From assembly GCF_022846255.1 (NCBI RefSeq), contig NZ_AP025682.1: a stretch of DNA of 64,000 nt, one strand, 5' to 3'. The notes under the pieces were generated by a model. It made no database searches. It saw only the letters and a program-made list of their open reading frames with translations, and was not told the DNA's origin. The stretch is from Escherichia coli. GTDB lineage: Bacteria > Pseudomonadota > Gammaproteobacteria > Enterobacterales > Enterobacteriaceae. The stretch's first letter is position 1; every line of letters starts with the position of its first letter. The position numbers were made by a program, and so were the translations under genes. Below are positions 34,839 through 61,575 of this stretch, piece by piece.

Positions 34839-35133
34839 TACCGTTGTCTCTCGTCCAGGTTTACTCCTGATAGAAAGTCATCGGCACTTGACGGTAATTA
34901 CTTATGACCAAAAACCTCTTTGCGTCACATTTTTACAACAATTATGGCAGAGAAGAATAATGCCATTGGAATGAAGAGAGTAACGAATGATTAAACTGGC
35001 AAACCCGAATGACGAAAAATTCTGGAAAACAGCACGCAATTTCGTCAGGTGATTATTTTCGTCCCTAAGGAAACCACATAGGATGCTCACGGGTGCCTGA
35101 GACTTTCTGTTTTCAGGCTAACCGGGAATCAGA

Positions 35134-35178
35134 AAGACGAAGGCCCCGACCGATATTTCTATCAACCGAGGCCAACGA

Positions 35179-35189
<11 letters not shown>
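35134..35189 (-). ncRNA. sokB: SokB antisense RNA of the hokB/mokB type I toxin locus (position approximate)
   Basis: Placed antisense across the mokB start by analogy with hok/sok loci and remembered K-12 layout; ends not determined from sequence. Confidence 0.3.
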
Positions 35190-35386
<197 letters not shown>

Positions 35387-35457
35387 GGGCAAGCGCGGGG
35401 ATTTTCCCCGCGCATCTGACTAGCAGATTCATTTTCTCATGGCACCCCTTTTACACT

Positions 35458-35631
35458 TCAGTTAGTGCATGTTTTTTTCGATGCACTAATAGAACCATCA
35501 TTACAGACAAATTTGCCGCCTGCCGTACAGTGTGAGATCCCCCCTTTCGAACCAGAACAGGGTTTGCGCCCGGCATCGGCATAAAAGGAAACAAGCGTTC
35601 CCATAACCAGGATAAGCGCCAGTTTTTTCAT
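35458..35631 (-). CDS. ydcA: YdcA small secreted Cys-containing protein (57 aa)
   Basis: Hand translation from ATG 35631-35629 with GGAGG RBS: MKKLALILVMGTLVSFYADAGRKPCSGSKGGISHCTAGGKFVCNDGSISASKKTCTN; below ORF-track cut-off. Confidence 0.8.
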   Translation of the reverse strand: MKKLALILVMGTLVSFYADAGRKPCSGSKGGISHCTAGGKFVCNDGSISASKKTCTN

Positions 35632-55700: not shown

Positions 55701-56242
55701 CCAACACCGGTGGTCAGGCGTCGAAAGCGACACCGCTGGGTGCAGTAACTAAGTTTGGCGAGCACGGCAAACGTAAAGCGCGTAAAGATCTTGGCGTCAG
55801 TATGATGATGTACGGTCATGTTTATGTGGCGCAGATTTCTCTCGGCGCGCAGCTGAACCAGACGGTGAAAGCGATTCAGGAAGCGGAAGCGTATCCGGGG
55901 CCATCGCTGATCATCGCTTATAGCCCATGTGAAGAGCATGGTTACGATCTGGCACTCAGCCACGATCAGATGCGCCAACTCACTGCTACCGGCTTCTGGC
56001 CGTTATATCGCTTCGATCCTCGTCGTGCCGATGAAGGCAAACTGCCGCTGGCGCTGGATTCACGCCCGCCGTCAGAAGCACTGGAAGAAACGTTACTTCA
56101 CGAGCAGCGTTTCCGTCGTCTGAATTCGCAGCAGCCAGAAGTGGCAGAACAGTTATGGAAAGATGCTGCAGCTGATTTGCAAAAGCGCTATGACTTCCTG
56201 GCACAAATGGCCGGAAAAGCGGAAAAAAGCAACACCGATTAA
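52718..56242 (+). CDS. ydbK: pyruvate:flavodoxin/ferredoxin oxidoreductase (1174 aa)
   Basis: ORF track; two 4Fe-4S ferredoxin CxxCxxCxxxCP motifs and TPP-binding domain. Confidence 0.95.
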   Translation: MITIDGNGAVASVAFRTSEVIAIYPITPSSTMAEQADAWAGNGLKNVWGDTPRVVEMQSEAGAIATVHGALQTGALSTSFTSSQGLLLMIPTLYKLAGELTPFVLHVAARTVATHALSIFGDHSDVMAVRQTGCAMLCAANVQEAQDFALISHIATLKSRVPFIHFFDGFRTSHEINKIVPLADDTILELMPQAEIDAHRARALNPEHPVIRGTSANPDTYFQSREATNPWYNAVYDHVEQAMNDFAAATGRQYQPFEYYGHPQAERVIILMGSAIGTCEEVVDELLTRGEKVGVLKVRLYRPFSAKHLLQALPGSVRNVAVLDRTKEPGAQAEPLYLDVMTALAEAFNNGERETLPRVIGGRYGLSSKEFGPDCVLAVFAELNAAKPKARFTVGIYDDVTNLSLPLPENTLPNSAKLEALFYGLGSDGSVSATKNNIKIIGNSTPWYAQGYFVYDSKKAGGLTVSHLRVSEQPIRSAYLISQADFVGCHQLQFIDKYQMAERLKPGGIFLLNTPYSAAEVWSRLPQEVQAVLNQKKARFYVINAAKIARECGLAARINTVMQMVFFHLTQILPGDSALAELQGAIAKSYSSKGQDLVERNWQALALARESVEEVPLQPVNPHSANRPPVVSDAAPDFVKTVTAAMLAGLGDALPVSALPPDGTWPMGTTRWEKRNIAEEIPIWKEELCTQCNHCVAACPHSAIRAKVVPPEAMENAPASLHSLDVKSRDMRGQKYVLQVAPEDCTGCNLCVEVCPAKDRQNPEIKAINMMSRLEHVEEEKINYDFFLNLPEIDRSKLERIDIRTSQLITPLFEYSGACSGCGETPYIKLLTQLYGDRMLIANATGCSSIYGGNLPSTPYTTDANGRGPAWANSLFEDNAEFGLGFRLTVDQHRVRVLRLLDQFADKIPAELLTALKSDATPEVRREQVAALRQQLNDVAEAHELLRDADALVEKSIWLIGGDGWAYDIGFGGLDHVLSLTENVNILVLDTQCYSNTGGQASKATPLGAVTKFGEHGKRKARKDLGVSMMMYGHVYVAQISLGAQLNQTVKAIQEAEAYPGPSLIIAYSPCEEHGYDLALSHDQMRQLTATGFWPLYRFDPRRADEGKLPLALDSRPPSEALEETLLHEQRFRRLNSQQPEVAEQLWKDAAADLQKRYDFLAQMAGKAEKSNTD

Positions 56243-56270
56243 ATGCTCTGGATAAGGATCATCCAATTCT

Positions 56271-56380
56271 AAAAAAAAGCCCGGACGACTGTTCGGGCTT
56301 GTCTTCTTATATGTTGGAAAATCAGTAGCAATGCAATGGCCCAACAGAAAATAAAATCTGTGACAATAAAGGCATATAAC
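56271..56380 (-). ncRNA. micC: MicC Hfq-dependent small RNA (ompC/ompD repressor)
   Basis: Minus strand reads GTTATATGCCTTTATTGTCACAGATTTTATTTTCTGTTGGGCCATTGCATTGC...AGCCCGAACAGTCGTCCGGGCTTTTTTTT; divergent from ompN as in K-12. Confidence 0.85.
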
Positions 56381-56607
56381 CCGCGCAGAATAACGTATAG
56401 AAAATTAAAAGTATAATTTTTATTTTGTATGTGTTATCTCCAATACATTCACCAGACTTATTATCATTTCTGAAGAATTATTTAATTAAGGTTTTACTTA
56501 AGGCGTAACAAATGATATTTATCGGCTAACTGAACTTCTCCTTTAGGATGTTTTCACTCCCCAAAATGGGGATGAAAGGCAAATAAAATAACTAAAGGAT
56601 TTATTCA

Positions 56608-57741
56608 ATGAAAAGCAAAGTACTGGCACTCTTAATTCCTGCCCTGCTCGCTGCAGGTGCTGCACATGCAGCCGAAGTTTATAATAAAGACGGCAACAAA
56701 TTAGATCTGTATGGCAAAGTTGATGGCCTGCATTATTTTTCTGATAATTCAGCGAAAGATGGCGACCAGAGCTATGCTCGTCTGGGTTTTAAAGGCGAAA
56801 CCCAAATTAACGATCAACTCACTGGCTACGGTCAATGGGAATACAATATTCAGGCAAACAACACCGAATCTTCAACAAACCAGTCATGGACCCGTCTGGC
56901 ATTTGCCGGACTGAAATTTGCAGATTACGGTTCTTTCGATTACGGACGTAATTATGGCGTAATGTACGACATCGAAGGCTGGACTGATATGCTACCTGAA
57001 TTTGGCGGTGACTCTTATACCAATGCAGACAACTTTATGACTGGTCGTGCCAATGGCGTCGCGACTTATCGTAATGCTGATTTCTTCGGTCTGGTAAATG
57101 GTCTGAACTTCGCGGTGCAGTATCAAGGTAACAACGAAGGTGCCAGTAATGGTCAGGAAGGCACCAACAACGGACGTGATGTTCGCCATGAAAACGGTGA
57201 CGGCTGGGGTCTTTCCACAACATATGATTTAGGCATGGGCTTTAACGCTGGTGCGGCATACACCTCTTCTGACCGCACCAATGACCAGGTTAACCATACT
57301 GCGGCGGGTGGTGATAAAGCAGACGCGTGGACTGCTGGGCTAAAATACGATGCTAACAATATTTACCTGGCAACCATGTATTCAGAAACGCGTAATATGA
57401 CCCCGTTTGGCGACAGCGATTATGCTGTTGCAAACAAAACCCAGAACTTTGAAGTCACTGCACAGTACCAGTTTGATTTTGGTCTGCGTCCGGCAGTCTC
57501 TTTCCTGATGTCTAAAGGCCGTGACCTGCACGCTGCCGGTGGTGCAGACAACCCAGCAGGTGTTGATGATAAAGATCTGGTTAAATACGCCGATGTTGGC
57601 GCGACTTACTATTTCAATAAAAACATGTCCACCTATGTTGACTATAAAATCAACCTGTTGGATGAAGATGACAGTTTCTACGCTGCCAACGGCATCTCTA
57701 CCGATGATATCGTCGCTTTAGGTCTGGTTTATCAGTTCTAA
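56608..57741 (+). CDS. ompN: outer membrane porin OmpN (377 aa)
   Basis: ORF track; signal peptide, general-porin family, C-terminal ...LVYQF. Confidence 0.93.
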
Positions 57742-57749
57742 ATCCCCCT

Positions 57750-57773
57750 GCCCGCTGTTTTGGCGGGCTTTTT
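57750..57773 (+). terminator. rho-independent terminator of ompN
   Basis: GCCCGC...GCGGGC hairpin followed by TTTTT just after the ompN stop. Confidence 0.6.
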
Positions 57774-57800
57774 CTGCCTATTCATCCTCCTTTGATCTAA

Positions 57801-58316
<516 letters not shown>

Positions 58317-58323
58317 CACTAAC

Positions 58324-58348
58324 GCCCGCACATTGCTGCGGGCTTTTT
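58324..58348 (+). terminator. rho-independent terminator of uspF
   Basis: GCCCGCA-CATTGC-TGCGGGC followed by TTTTT. Confidence 0.65.
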
Positions 58349-58502
58349 GATTCATTTCGCAAATGTGCTGACATTTTCCCCTCTAATCATTACAATTTAA
58401 ATTTATGAATTATGCATTGATAATCGCTATTATAATATCGTTCCCTGTGCATTATTATCAGTTTTTCTGGTATTAAAAGACTGGGCGCTAATAGGAGATG
58501 CA

Positions 58503-59004
58503 ATGAACCACGCAATGTTTCCTGGCATAGTTCTAGCCTGGATTATAGGTATGCCGCTGGGAATTGGTGCATTTATTGTAGGACTGTCTTGTGCAATTGC
58601 AACTGGCTATCTGAAAGATAATAGCATCATAAAGAAAGATACCATTATAGGTATCGTTTTTTCAGGAATTTTTGTCTTGACTATCAACAGGCACAAGTCA
58701 GCGGATTACAGATATCATTATTACATTACAGTTTACTCTGCATGGTATCGCCTACCATTTTTGCCACATTAAAAGCAGTCGGAATTATTCTGTCTATATA
58801 CTATTAACAGCTCCAGGGTCTATTGCTGTCCTCACCACGCGTCGCTTTCATAAGGCATTACTTATCGCCGTAACGATATCAATAACAATATCAGGCGTAT
58901 GGTTATTATATTTTCTCGACAGAGCCCCAGCGCCGACAATCGTCCTCTTATTTGCTGTAGCATTTCTTTTCGCGCTGATAATAATCAATTTTCGGAAACA
59001 ATAA
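58503..59004 (+). pseudogene. membrane protein remnant resembling the C-terminal half of an ABC-3 family (ZnuB/MntB/SitD-type) metal-transport permease; two frameshifts
   Basis: AGGAG-ATG start, then hydrophobic reading continues through three frames; final frame ends ...FLDRAPAPTIVLLFAVAFLFALIIINFRKQ, like the conserved ABC-3 permease C-terminus; AT-rich codon usage. Confidence 0.45.
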
Positions 59005-59283
59005 TCTCAACAGTAGAATAAAGAGGCAAATCAATCATTACATATATAAGATGGTGCTAATATTGTACCGCCTTTAAATTGAATTTTATCCTTTCACCCT
59101 TACACAATTTAAGGAATGCAGATGACTATTTTATCAGCTCCCAGCCTTTTTCCTGGTAATCGAAAACTTGAAAATCATTAACTCTAAGAAATTCTGCCAA
59201 ATCGTTGAAATTACTTTAAATTAGACTCGAACAAATCAACCCCTGATGGGGCTTTTACTTATCAATTTAATCGTGTAGATATC

Positions 59284-59331
59284 GACCTCCATCTGCCCGC
59301 CTCAGATTCGTACCTGGTGGAGGTCTTTTTT
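59284..59331 (+). terminator. orphan terminator-like hairpin with U-tract in the AT-rich remnant region
   Basis: GACCTCCA...TGGAGGTC 8-10 bp stem followed by TTTTTT; a second small hairpin (CCCCTGATGGGG) lies about 40 nt upstream; no annotated gene ends here. Confidence 0.4.
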
Positions 59332-59392
59332 CGTTGCCTCTTTCCCCCTTTAGTTCAGTATAAAATCATCAAACTAATGCTGTTCACACTAT

Positions 59393-59572
59393 TTACCTCC
59401 AGCATTCTATATAAATAATAGAAATAAAAACCCCAATACATAGTGCATTGGCATGACCAAACATCAATGCCATTATACTCGCCTCTGTTAAATACTCGCT
59501 AGTTAATATGATAGGCACGCATGATATAACAATCCATATGCTAATACATAAATACACCAGTATTTTTCTCAT
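59393..59572 (-). CDS. candidate small membrane protein (59 aa), AT-rich, unknown function
   Basis: Hand translation: MRKILVYLCISIWIVISCVPIILTSEYLTEASIMALMFGHANALCIGVFISIIYIECWR; AGGGA RBS-like 7 nt upstream; two hydrophobic segments; below ORF-track cut-off. Confidence 0.3.
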   Translation of the reverse strand: MRKILVYLCISIWIVISCVPIILTSEYLTEASIMALMFGHANALCIGVFISIIYIECWR

Positions 59573-60279
59573 AGTCAGTCCCTGTGATTAACAACAAGGC
59601 ATAGTTAAACATATTTCACATTCAAACGTAAACATTATTAATAAAATTCTGTCAATCAAACTGACATCACGATTCAAGCCCTCTTCAAACTGAAGGTTAG
59701 AGCAGCGTAGAACATTTCAAAACAATACACTAAAAAAATACCCGAACAAAAAACTTAATTCTTTTTTATTGTGAACTTTAGTAATTTTGCCATGCAACTC
59801 TTTATTACATTTAGGCCTATCTTATTTCATGGCAACGCAGATACAGGACCATTTCTTGTGCTATGGATAAGTAATAAGCTAGTTACATCTTTTTAAGAGA
59901 ACCATTTTCACATATCAAGATATCATCACCACCCACAATGAATTAAGTATTTTTCTTATTCTTTAGATTAGATGCGTAATGAATCCCTAACTCCATTCGG
60001 GCGTTATGGCTCTTTCATTTGAAATACATTCATATCCAATGTAATATTTCCATGCGCAAATATAACTACCGACCATACTCATCATTTATTACAGAGAATT
60101 ATTTTATTCACCGAAAAGTTTCACAAAATATCCCCTGATAGAAAACTAAAAAACACTGCATAATATCGCTATTCTGGCACTTGCGAAAAATTATATTCTG
60201 CACCTGTTGTAGCGTTCTATTTCTCCGCCTGGCAACGAATGCACAATGTCCGCCACAGTTTCTGTTCTAATTTCTTCCT

Positions 60280-60588
60280 GTGTTACCGCATCCTGTACGG
60301 GTAGCGCAACACCAGCATGCTAAGCAAGGCTTTCCCATCAGATTTCACTACGACTATTTGGGAGCGAGATGGAATGCAGCAGTAAAACGTGCTGGTATTC
60401 GCCGCCGTAATCCGTACCATACGCGACATACTTTTGCCTGCTGGCTGTTGACGGCAGGAGCGAACCCGGCATTTATAGCCAGCCAGATGGGGCATGAAAC
60501 TGCGCAGATGGTGTATGAAATTTACGGTATGTGGATTGATGACATGAACGACGAACAGGTAGCCATGTTAAATGCGCGGTTATCGTAG
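60280..60588 (+). pseudogene. phage tyrosine integrase, C-terminal fragment (Rac-type integrase remnant)
   Basis: ORF carries the integrase C-terminal catalytic region (...HTRHTFACWLLTAGANPAFIASQMGHETAQMVYEIY...); no N-terminal or core-binding domain; directly upstream of ttcA. Confidence 0.7.
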
Positions 60589-60639
60589 TTGCAAAGTTTG
60601 CCCTCAATATGCCCCACTTAGTACCAGAGAACTGAAATA

Positions 60640-61575
60640 ATGCAAGAAAATCAACAAATTACAAAGAAAGAACAATACAACCTGAACAAATTACAAAAAC
60701 GTCTGCGTCGTAACGTGGGCGAAGCCATTGCTGACTTCAATATGATTGAAGAAGGCGATCGCATCATGGTTTGCCTCTCCGGGGGTAAAGACAGCTATAC
60801 CATGCTGGAGATTCTGCGCAATTTGCAGCAAAGCGCGCCAATCAATTTTTCGCTGGTGGCTGTTAACCTCGATCAAAAGCAACCGGGCTTCCCGGAACAC
60901 GTTCTGCCCGAGTATCTTGAAAAGCTGGGCGTTGAGTACAAGATTGTTGAAGAGAACACTTACGGTATCGTGAAAGAGAAGATTCCGGAGGGCAAAACCA
61001 CTTGCTCACTGTGTTCTCGCCTGCGTCGCGGTATCCTTTATCGTACCGCAACGGAACTAGGGGCGACGAAGATCGCACTGGGTCACCATCGTGACGATAT
61101 CCTGCAAACGCTGTTCTTAAATATGTTCTACGGTGGCAAGATGAAAGGTATGCCTCCGAAACTGATGAGCGATGATGGCAAACATATCGTGATCCGTCCG
61201 CTGGCCTACTGCCGCGAGAAAGATATTCAGCGCTTTGCCGATGCAAAAGCGTTCCCGATTATTCCGTGCAACCTGTGCGGTTCACAGCCTAACCTGCAAC
61301 GTCAGGTGATTGCTGACATGTTGCGTGACTGGGATAAACGTTATCCGGGGCGTATCGAGACGATGTTCAGCGCAATGCAGAATGTGGTGCCGTCGCATCT
61401 GTGCGATACCAACCTGTTCGATTTCAAAGGCATTACCCACGGTTCTGAAGTGGTTAACGGGGGTGATCTGGCGTTTGATCGCGAAGAGATCCCACTACAA
61501 CCAGCGGGCTGGCAGCCTGAAGAAGATGAAAATCAGTTGGATGAGTTACGGCTGAATGTGGTTGAAGTGAAATAA
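60640..61575 (+). CDS. ttcA: tRNA-cytidine(32) 2-sulfurtransferase TtcA (311 aa)
   Basis: ORF track; PP-loop motif SGGKDS and CxxC pairs. Confidence 0.93.

Follow-up and report, generated by a model that had tools for sequence, protein, structure and literature searches.

What are two neighbouring hairpins and a run of T's doing at a place where no annotated gene ends? The question is raised by positions 59239-59331 of a 64,000-nt stretch of Escherichia coli DNA (here called the window; RefSeq assembly GCF_022846255.1, contig NZ_AP025682.1), in the interval between uspF and ttcA. Reading the plus strand, there is a small GC hairpin (CCCCTGATGGGG, 59240-59251, with a 4-bp GC stem and a 4-nt loop), then a large hairpin (GACCTCCATC...GGTGGAGGTC, 59284-59325, with ten pairs, including one G.U on the plus strand, and a 22-nt loop), and finally TTTTTT at 59326-59331, which is AAAAAA on the minus strand. 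An earlier note on this DNA had described these elements and had proposed that they are the 3' end of an unannotated small RNA (sRNA) or of a decayed prophage transcript. Inspection of the sequence and RNAfold predictions confirm that the two hairpins and the T-run are present as described, and also that no annotated gene ends here: in E. coli O127:H6 E2348/69 (NC_011601.1), whose minus strand matches window positions 58400-60300 with 99.9-100% identity, RefSeq holds no feature between 59004 and 60230, and the locus match is annotated 'none' in every genome shown, out of ~1044 carriers. These carriers, which include Nissle 1917 and sequence type 131 (ST131), are found among 5426 complete E. 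coli genomes and have the locus at 97.8-100% identity. In this study, we describe the sequence 59240-59344 as, very probably, the leftover 3' half of a hokD/hokC-type toxin gene lying on the minus strand.

Nucleotide comparison provides the first line of evidence. When 59100-59400 was used as a blastn query against the 5426 complete E. coli genomes (28 Gb), annotated hokD coding sequences matched 59273-59338 with 80.3% identity over 66 nt (E 4e-6), in an orientation antisense to the window plus strand, so that the homolog lies on the minus strand. The same spot is matched by ~370 plasmid records, annotated as hokD or as Hok family and oriented in the sense of the window minus strand; the plasmid hokD alignments reach 59338-59240, with 74.8% identity over 99-103 nt. 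Within the window, blastn gave the hokD similarity an E value of 1.6e-11, and a MAFFT alignment of the relic with hokA-E supports homology. The hok-family (hokD/hokC-like) type I toxin gene relic thus delimited occupies 59240..59344 on the minus strand and corresponds to codons ~23-51 plus ~15 nt past the ancestral stop.

Translation agrees with this assignment. The minus-strand frame KKDLHQVRI*GGQMEVDIYT, where the asterisk is a stop, can be set against RKDLCEVRIRTGQTEVAVFT of HokD, and a longer frame, ...ATKKDLHQVRI*GGQMEVDIYTIKL, against ...VTRKDLCEVRIRTGQTEVAVFTAYEPEE of the same protein. The conceptual peptide has HOK_GEF (PF01848) as its sole matching Pfam family (E 0.05, 13.6 bits, for a cut-off of 22), and when all six frames of the window were scanned with a small Hok hidden Markov model (HMM), the relic came second, behind the intact hokB (35237-35383). 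The latter belongs to an intact hokB/mokB/sokB locus on the plus strand (35049-35529, 98% identical to K-12, with the hokB open reading frame (ORF) at ~35237-35383), which served as the positive control for the Hok searches.

The relic has lost the features of a working toxin gene. An in-frame TGA stop is found at 59302..59304 of the minus strand, where translation and alignment place an Arg in HokD; the conserved Cys codon has become CAC (His) at 59317-59319; and deletions of 1 nt and 3 nt before the ancestral TAA (59257-59255) put the old stop out of frame. At 59240-59344 there is no intact Hok ORF of ~50 aa that combines an N-terminal transmembrane helix with the conserved C-terminal-domain Cys. 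Neither the hokD N-terminal half, looked for at the relic by shuffle tests (p 0.15-0.53), nor the hokD leader with mok and the sok target, compared with 59405-59660 (59 of 500 shuffles score as well), gave significant similarity, and the hokD 3' untranslated region (UTR), compared with 59120-59262, gave none beyond the first ~15 nt (354 of 1000 shuffles were as good); neither the long-range 5' tac/3' fbi pairing nor the terminal 3' stem-loop of hok mRNA is recognizable. A covariance scan of 56000-61000 against Rfam 15, on both strands and at E ≤ 1, returned the sRNA MicC and a sub-threshold Leu leader and nothing else, with neither Sok nor any other family at the relic and its hairpins; a covariance-model search had been named in the earlier note as a check. 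Because of the in-frame stop, the lost Cys, the insertions or deletions, and the lack of a recognizable N-terminal half, mok, sok, or leader, this copy of the toxin gene is, judged by its sequence, dead. One candidate N-terminal extension, a hand-spliced peptide ('...FISIIYIECWR*IV*TALV', where asterisks are stops) that reaches 20-22 bits with Pfam, was rejected, as the splice had been chosen by eye and the neutral six-frame HMM scan did not recover it; its score is a hint only.

Which pieces of the former gene, then, have given rise to the look of a terminator? On the minus strand, the 5' arm of the large hairpin (59284..59325), GACCTCCACC, corresponds to the codons D-L-H-Q (D-L-C-E in HokD), and the 3' arm, GATGGAGGTC, to M-E-V (T-E-V in HokD). 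The hairpin is homologous to a GACCUC...GAGGUC stem found within the coding sequences of intact hokD and hokC, whose homologous 60-nt segments have an identical closing stem and fold with -16.6 to -17.8 kcal/mol in sense and -11.9 to -16.3 kcal/mol in antisense. The T-run, AAAAAA at 59326..59331 of the minus strand, is made of two Lys codons homologous to the Arg-Lys pair (AGGAAA in hokD, AGAAAA in hokC) that precedes the conserved D-L-C-E motif, and it was perfected by two G-to-A changes. The small hairpin starts 4 nt past the ancestral hok stop and aligns with ACCCGGCGAGGG of the hokD 3' UTR. On its antisense strand, intact hokD reads GACCUCC...GAGGUC followed by UUUCCUCGUU, and intact hokC likewise reads the hairpin followed by UUUUCUCGUU. 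Since both intact genes have the stem and present a hairpin plus T-run in antisense, the motif is inherited and is seen here from the wrong strand. Its likeness to a plus-strand terminator is a by-product of descent: what had been taken for a terminator stem is former coding sequence, and the 'U-tract' is a Lys-Lys A-tract of the minus strand.

In our view, the ~105 nt running from 59344 to 59240 on the minus strand are very probably the remains of the 3' half of a hokD/hokC-type toxin gene. The large inverted repeat is the stem that this hok lineage has inside its coding sequence, formed between the D-L and the E-V codons; the T-run is the pair of basic-residue codons before that stem, seen in complement; and the small hairpin comes from the first bases of the old hok 3' UTR. 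These observations also bear on another alternative, that of chance palindromes in AT-rich intergenic DNA, with neither history nor function. The fold z-scores are not significant, and shuffled sequences give ~1.5 comparable sites per window, both of which would suit such an origin; the inverted repeat is not random, however, because it was inherited from a hok-family coding sequence, and the demonstrable homology, together with the presence of the same stem in hok genes, refutes chance so directly that we give it next to no credence.

A stronger contender would be a working Rho-independent terminator on the plus strand, formed by the large hairpin and U6, which would end an sRNA, a small-ORF transcript, or read-through from a permease pseudogene upstream. 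In this regard, the ten-pair, GC-rich stem stands directly before TTTTTTCG, and such sites are rare: a search of both strands of the 64-kb window for stems of 9 or more pairs, with loops no longer than 25 nt and with 6 or more T among the 8 bases that follow, found 4, against 1.55 in dinucleotide shuffles. A possible client would be a 19-aa ORF on the plus strand (MTILSAPSLFPGNRKLENH, 59122-59181), which has an AAGGA Shine-Dalgarno sequence 6 nt upstream, lies 100 nt upstream of the motif, and has a synonymous position as its sole variant site; moreover, the variants of the small hairpin on the plus strand, C-G, U.G, and U-A, are always paired. Against this, the 22-nt loop is far from the typical 3-8 nt, which is also the limit of the terminator scan, so that the scan made no call for the large hairpin; the motif is inherited from hok coding sequence read in antisense, and intact hokD has a nearly identical one; no Rfam family is found there; uspF ends at its own strong terminator (58324-58343); and no plus-strand gene ends nearby, the pseudogene ending at 59004. 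Published RNA interaction by ligation and sequencing (RIL-seq) tables from enteropathogenic E. coli (EPEC), which list significant Hfq chimeras only, contain no plus-strand RNA for the uspF-ttcA intergenic region, RNA being found on the opposite strand only (PMC8550237).

Folding energy does not set the hairpins apart from shuffled sequence. RNAfold keeps both hairpins in the minimum free energy and centroid structures, with isolated energies of -12.7 kcal/mol on the plus strand and -11.6 on the minus strand for the large one, and -7.5 and -8.5 kcal/mol, respectively, for the small one. The plus-strand fold of 111 nt has z = -1.10 (27 of 200 shuffles fold as well), and longer contexts give z = -0.17 for 231 nt of the plus strand and -0.55 for the minus strand; the fold energies of the hairpins are thus statistically not unusual. 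Folded within the 231 nt of the plus strand, the U-tract is predicted to be taken up in pairs with bases lying upstream, a further point against termination. The small hairpin has an A-rich 5' flank and a U-rich 3' flank on both strands, and the terminator scan flagged it on the minus strand. All together, we regard a functional plus-strand terminator as improbable, and we consider that, in all likelihood, the hok relic has no such function and is merely carried in the 3' part of a minus-strand RNA.

That RNA is documented. The EPEC RIL-seq tables list an RNA called 'ttcA.uspF.IGR' on the NC_011601 plus strand, which is the window minus strand (PMC8550237); a window position p converts to NC_011601.1 position 1580034-(p-59100). 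Its limits in the window, 59151..59596 on the minus strand, are the extreme 5' ends of chimeric reads (PMC8550237 Tables S3, S5, S7) and need not be the true transcript ends. Chimeras with RyhB have RNA1 read starts at 1579696-1579983, i.e., window positions 59438-59151 (13 fragments, p 3.4e-6), and those with PasD2 at 1579538-1579544, i.e., 59596-59590 (14 fragments, p 2.3e-7; both PMC8550237 Table S3). The RNA is always RNA1 (its fraction as RNA2 is 0), is found in the 'activating' condition only, where it gave 27 fragments, and its U tracts reach a length of 3 at most (PMC8550237 Table S5). In these published data it therefore shows the significant chimeras, and the position as 5' partner, that characterize a target of Hfq-bound RyhB and PasD2. 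The PasD2 motif is located at CUUGUUGUUA-AUCACAGG-GACUGACUAU (PMC8550237 Table S7), and AUCACAGG (59588-59581) overlaps an AGGGA Shine-Dalgarno sequence just upstream of an ATG at 59572. A Pas sRNA preprint does not mention a target at ttcA-uspF, and the portion of the EPEC 3'-end tables covered here shows no terminus at 1579700-1580099 (PMC10687069).

The proposals of the earlier note can be refined at this point. An unannotated transcript does exist, as the suggestion of an unannotated sRNA implied, but it runs on the minus strand, behaves like a target, and has the T-run upstream of the hairpin. As for the decayed prophage transcript, the decay was correctly sensed, and the decayed sequence is a hok-family toxin relic; the strand was wrong, since the relic lies on the minus strand.

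The ATG at 59572 opens an unannotated ORF of 59 aa on the minus strand (MRKILVYLCISIWIV...IYIECWR, 59393..59572), hydrophobic and with two predicted helices, whose AGGGA Shine-Dalgarno sequence is at 59583-59579. The hairpins lie on the same strand, 70-150 nt downstream of its stop. Comparison of four B2-type lineages (E2348/69, Nissle 1917, ST131, and FDAARGOS_1254) shows the ORF intact in all of them, with a single V6M change, and with 1 variable site in 180 nt versus 14 in 421 nt of the flanks (p ~0.04-0.05). Its dominant protein cluster is on at least 1000 contigs, from E. coli only, and has never been called by the Prokaryotic Genome Annotation Pipeline (PGAP); a seemingly 'distant' homolog was discarded, as it came from a low-quality E. 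coli assembly of the same locus. The ORF is presumably translated, and the cluster of chimeric read starts at 59596-59590 may correspond to the beginning of its mRNA.

Prediction places a second sRNA contact at the other end of this ORF. When the RyhB core was scanned with RNAduplex against 40-nt windows, the best predicted pairing site was at 59371..59410 of the minus strand (-26.3 kcal/mol), spanning the ORF stop just upstream of the relic, with an energy that places it among the best 0.3% of such windows when both strands of the 64 kb are considered; pairing full-length RyhB with the whole RNA gave an unrealistic 190-nt duplex, no better than shuffles. The relic thus now belongs to the 3' part of an Hfq-bound, minus-strand RNA that starts near 59596 and carries the 59-aa ORF. 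This RNA is contacted by PasD2 at the ribosome-binding site and by RyhB, according to prediction, at the ORF stop. The hairpins would have no role of their own.

Two side observations belong here. Inside the 59-aa ORF and on its own strand there is a terminator-like hairpin with a U-run (CCAATGCACTATGTATTGG GGTTTTTATT, 59433-59451), which has only 3 GC pairs and is probably spurious; if real, it would affect the amount of full-length mRNA. In the 19-aa ORF of the opposite strand, the sole polymorphic site among the four lineages is 59139, with three alleles that are all synonymous (GCT/GCA/GCC), and these polymorphic bases are also part of the RyhB site that ranks second by prediction, which is on the strand opposite to that ORF (59150-59111, -21.2 kcal/mol).

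A small, hydrophobic ORF that is conserved intact and contacted by sRNAs on Hfq invites the thought that a divergent type I toxin locus is still alive here, be it as a working gene of hok type or as a novel toxin assembled from pieces of hok. The C-terminus of the 59-aa ORF, read through stops (…FISIIYIECWR*IV*TALV), even resembles loosely the Hok transmembrane segment and adds 7-8 bits to the Pfam score. This splice, however, was picked by eye; at the DNA level, including the upstream part brings no significant gain (p 0.15-0.53); the Hok frame contains an in-frame stop and lacks the Cys; the 59-aa ORF has no match to HOK_GEF; and the Rfam scan contains no antisense Sok-like RNA. A live toxin is, in our judgement, very improbable.

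Variation among lineages can be read in more than one way. Of the 105 positions of the hok relic, 5 vary among the four lineages, the densest variation in the 600 nt compared, which fits neutral decay. In the small hairpin, the outer pair (59240/59251) is C-G in 31 genomes, U-A in 249, C.A on the minus strand (U.G on the plus strand) in 633, and otherwise in ~130, in a sampling that is clone-biased. The hokD bases at these positions are A..A, and therefore the mismatch form is probably ancestral and the pair was closed twice.

On this basis, the hok debris may have been co-opted on the minus strand, with the hairpins serving as 3' UTR or terminator of the 59-aa ORF mRNA. The small hairpin followed by UUGAUUUGUU would then act as terminator or Hfq-binding 3' end, while the A-rich tract and the large stem would stabilize the RNA or bind the Hfq distal face, a proposal that overlaps with that of a relic carried in the RNA. 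The RNA is found on Hfq, the small hairpin was flagged as terminator-like on this very strand, the ARN-rich GAAAGAGGCAACGAAAAAAGA stands before the large stem, no variation is seen in the large hairpin across the four lineages, and the outer pair of the small hairpin has been closed by each of two independent transitions. However, the RyhB read start at 59151, ~90 nt past the small hairpin, indicates that some transcripts pass both hairpins; the commonest haplotype (633 genomes) has the C.A mismatch, which leaves a 3-bp stem; the fold z is -0.55; and the longest U tract of the RNA is 3, with no behaviour as RNA2, i.e., like an sRNA (PMC8550237 Table S5). We consider co-option possible, although clearly not the likelier outcome.

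Returning to the relic of a dead hok gene, several points weigh against it as a complete account. The hok homology spans only ~100 nt; the HOK_GEF score of the conceptual peptide stays under the Pfam threshold, and 20-22 bits are obtained only with the hand-spliced peptide; and an intact ortholog of this copy was not found when 100,044 species-representative genomes were searched with a degenerate 43-nt pattern, which returned four loci, all of them ordinary intact hokD. On the side of the RNA, the RIL-seq tables give extreme read starts only, and a plus-strand RNA that does not bind Hfq would escape them. Finally, the large hairpin with T6 (48 nt) is invariant in the four lineages while the rest of the relic varies, and the outer pair of the small hairpin was closed twice by independent transitions, for which a rough post-hoc estimate gives a chance of ~0.01. 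The invariance or the double closure could reflect some structural constraint, on either strand, or, for the double closure, chance.

How the hok sequence came to this place is suggested by its surroundings. In the order of the window plus strand, the locus comprises nifJ/ydbK, MicC, ompN, uspF, a metal-ABC permease pseudogene, ~1.2 kb of unannotated DNA, a DUF1627 fragment, an integrase fragment, ttcA, and dbpA. MicC (56263-56383, minus strand), between ydbK/nifJ and ompN, was recognized at full length by Rfam (RF00121, 122.7 bits) and has no RefSeq feature in this stretch. Between core genes of ~50% GC, the segment 58350-60250 is AT-rich, with 30-40% GC. Directly after the uspF terminator, which was found with the terminator scan, comes the frameshifted metal-ABC transporter permease pseudogene (58405-59004, plus strand), itself AT-rich and with an identical frameshift in the E2348/69, Nissle, ST131, and FDAARGOS_1254 records examined. 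At the other end, remnants of the prophage genes LygF/YdaW/DUF1627, together with the C-terminal third of a tyrosine integrase (60125-60588, the integrase fragment being 60280-60588), adjoin ttcA, the attachment gene of Rac-type prophages; 60125-60588 represents a Rac-type prophage at ttcA of which almost nothing is left. A search of a phage collection with 59000-60300 gave matches confined to 60125-60299 (LygF/YdaW) and, at E ≤ 1e-5, none to the hairpins, and no attachment-site duplication delimiting the prophage remnant was found, including near uspF.

The AT-rich stretch around the hok relic has these prophage and integrase fragments at its end, beside the ttcA attachment site, and hokD is known as prophage cargo, both in Qin of K-12 and in the prophage-type context ydfU-rem-hokD of another strain. 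The hok gene probably arrived with a prophage or island that was once at the ttcA attachment site and has since decayed. A search for literature linking hok with uspF or ttcA returned nothing relevant.

The relic is a piece of a hok pseudogene that has escaped annotation; its kind is very well known, and it results from ordinary gene decay. It adds one hok relic to the inventory of E. coli, present in ~1044 of the 5426 complete genomes. Its main lesson is one of caution, as a convincing 'orphan terminator' turns out to be what the coding sequence of a dead gene looks like from the wrong strand, and intact hokD and hokC show the same pseudo-terminator on their antisense strands. Of more interest is what came to light along the way, a conserved small ORF, also unannotated, on a transcript that is contacted by sRNAs and is in part toxin-gene debris, a transcript that has figured so far only as an anonymous intergenic RNA in the published EPEC tables (PMC8550237). 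Should the 59-aa ORF be translated, with RyhB and PasD2 as its regulators, it would provide a small example of a lineage-specific gene built on such debris. A bolder version, which we hold to be rather unlikely, is that in about one-fifth of E. coli genomes (Nissle 1917, ST131, E2348/69, and relatives) hok debris was rebuilt into an mRNA for a 59-aa membrane protein with two helices, with the old hok stem and a terminator as its 3' UTR, under the control of the prophage sRNA PasD2 at the ribosome-binding site and of the iron-stress sRNA RyhB near the stop; in that case, the hairpins would function as a 3' module taken over from a toxin gene that has died.

Comparison with known systems places each part of the locus. 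The RNA resembles the Hfq-dependent sRNA targets of the EPEC RyhB and PasD regulons in being always RNA1, in its partners RyhB and PasD2, and in having the PasD2 motif on the ribosome-binding site, the predicted pairing sites being 59588-59581 and 59410-59371 and not the hairpins; regulation itself is putative. With Rho-independent terminators, the plus strand shares a GC-rich stem of ten pairs and six U at once, and differs from them in its 22-nt loop (3-8 nt being usual), in having no plus-strand gene or RNA known to end there, and in a motif derived from coding sequence of the opposite strand. The closest relative is hokD (relF), found in Qin, in other lambdoid prophages, and in plasmids: it is the best nucleotide match (80% over 66 nt, 75% over ~100 nt) and shares the codon order (R/K)-K-D-L-x-x-V-R-I-x-x-G-Q-x-E-V, the GACCUC...GAGGUC stem, and a 3' UTR start similar to the small hairpin. 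Unlike hokD, the relic has the 3' half only, with the TGA, the Cys-to-His change, and the 1-nt and 3-nt deletions, and lacks the hok start, the leader, and the terminal 3' stem-loop. The chromosomal hokC (gef)/mokC/sokC and hokB/mokB/sokB loci belong to the same gene family and keep an intact ORF of ~50 aa, an overlapping mok frame, and an annotated antisense Sok, none of which is detectable at 59240-59344.

Likewise disabled are hokA, hokC, and hokE of K-12, which adjoin the insertion sequences (IS) IS150 or IS186; Pedersen and Gerdes are said to have reported in 1999 that IS insertions inactivate these loci. In those three, the reading frames are intact and the loci IS-disrupted, whereas in the relic described here the frame itself is degraded and there is no IS; together, they illustrate that decayed hok loci are commonplace in E. 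coli.

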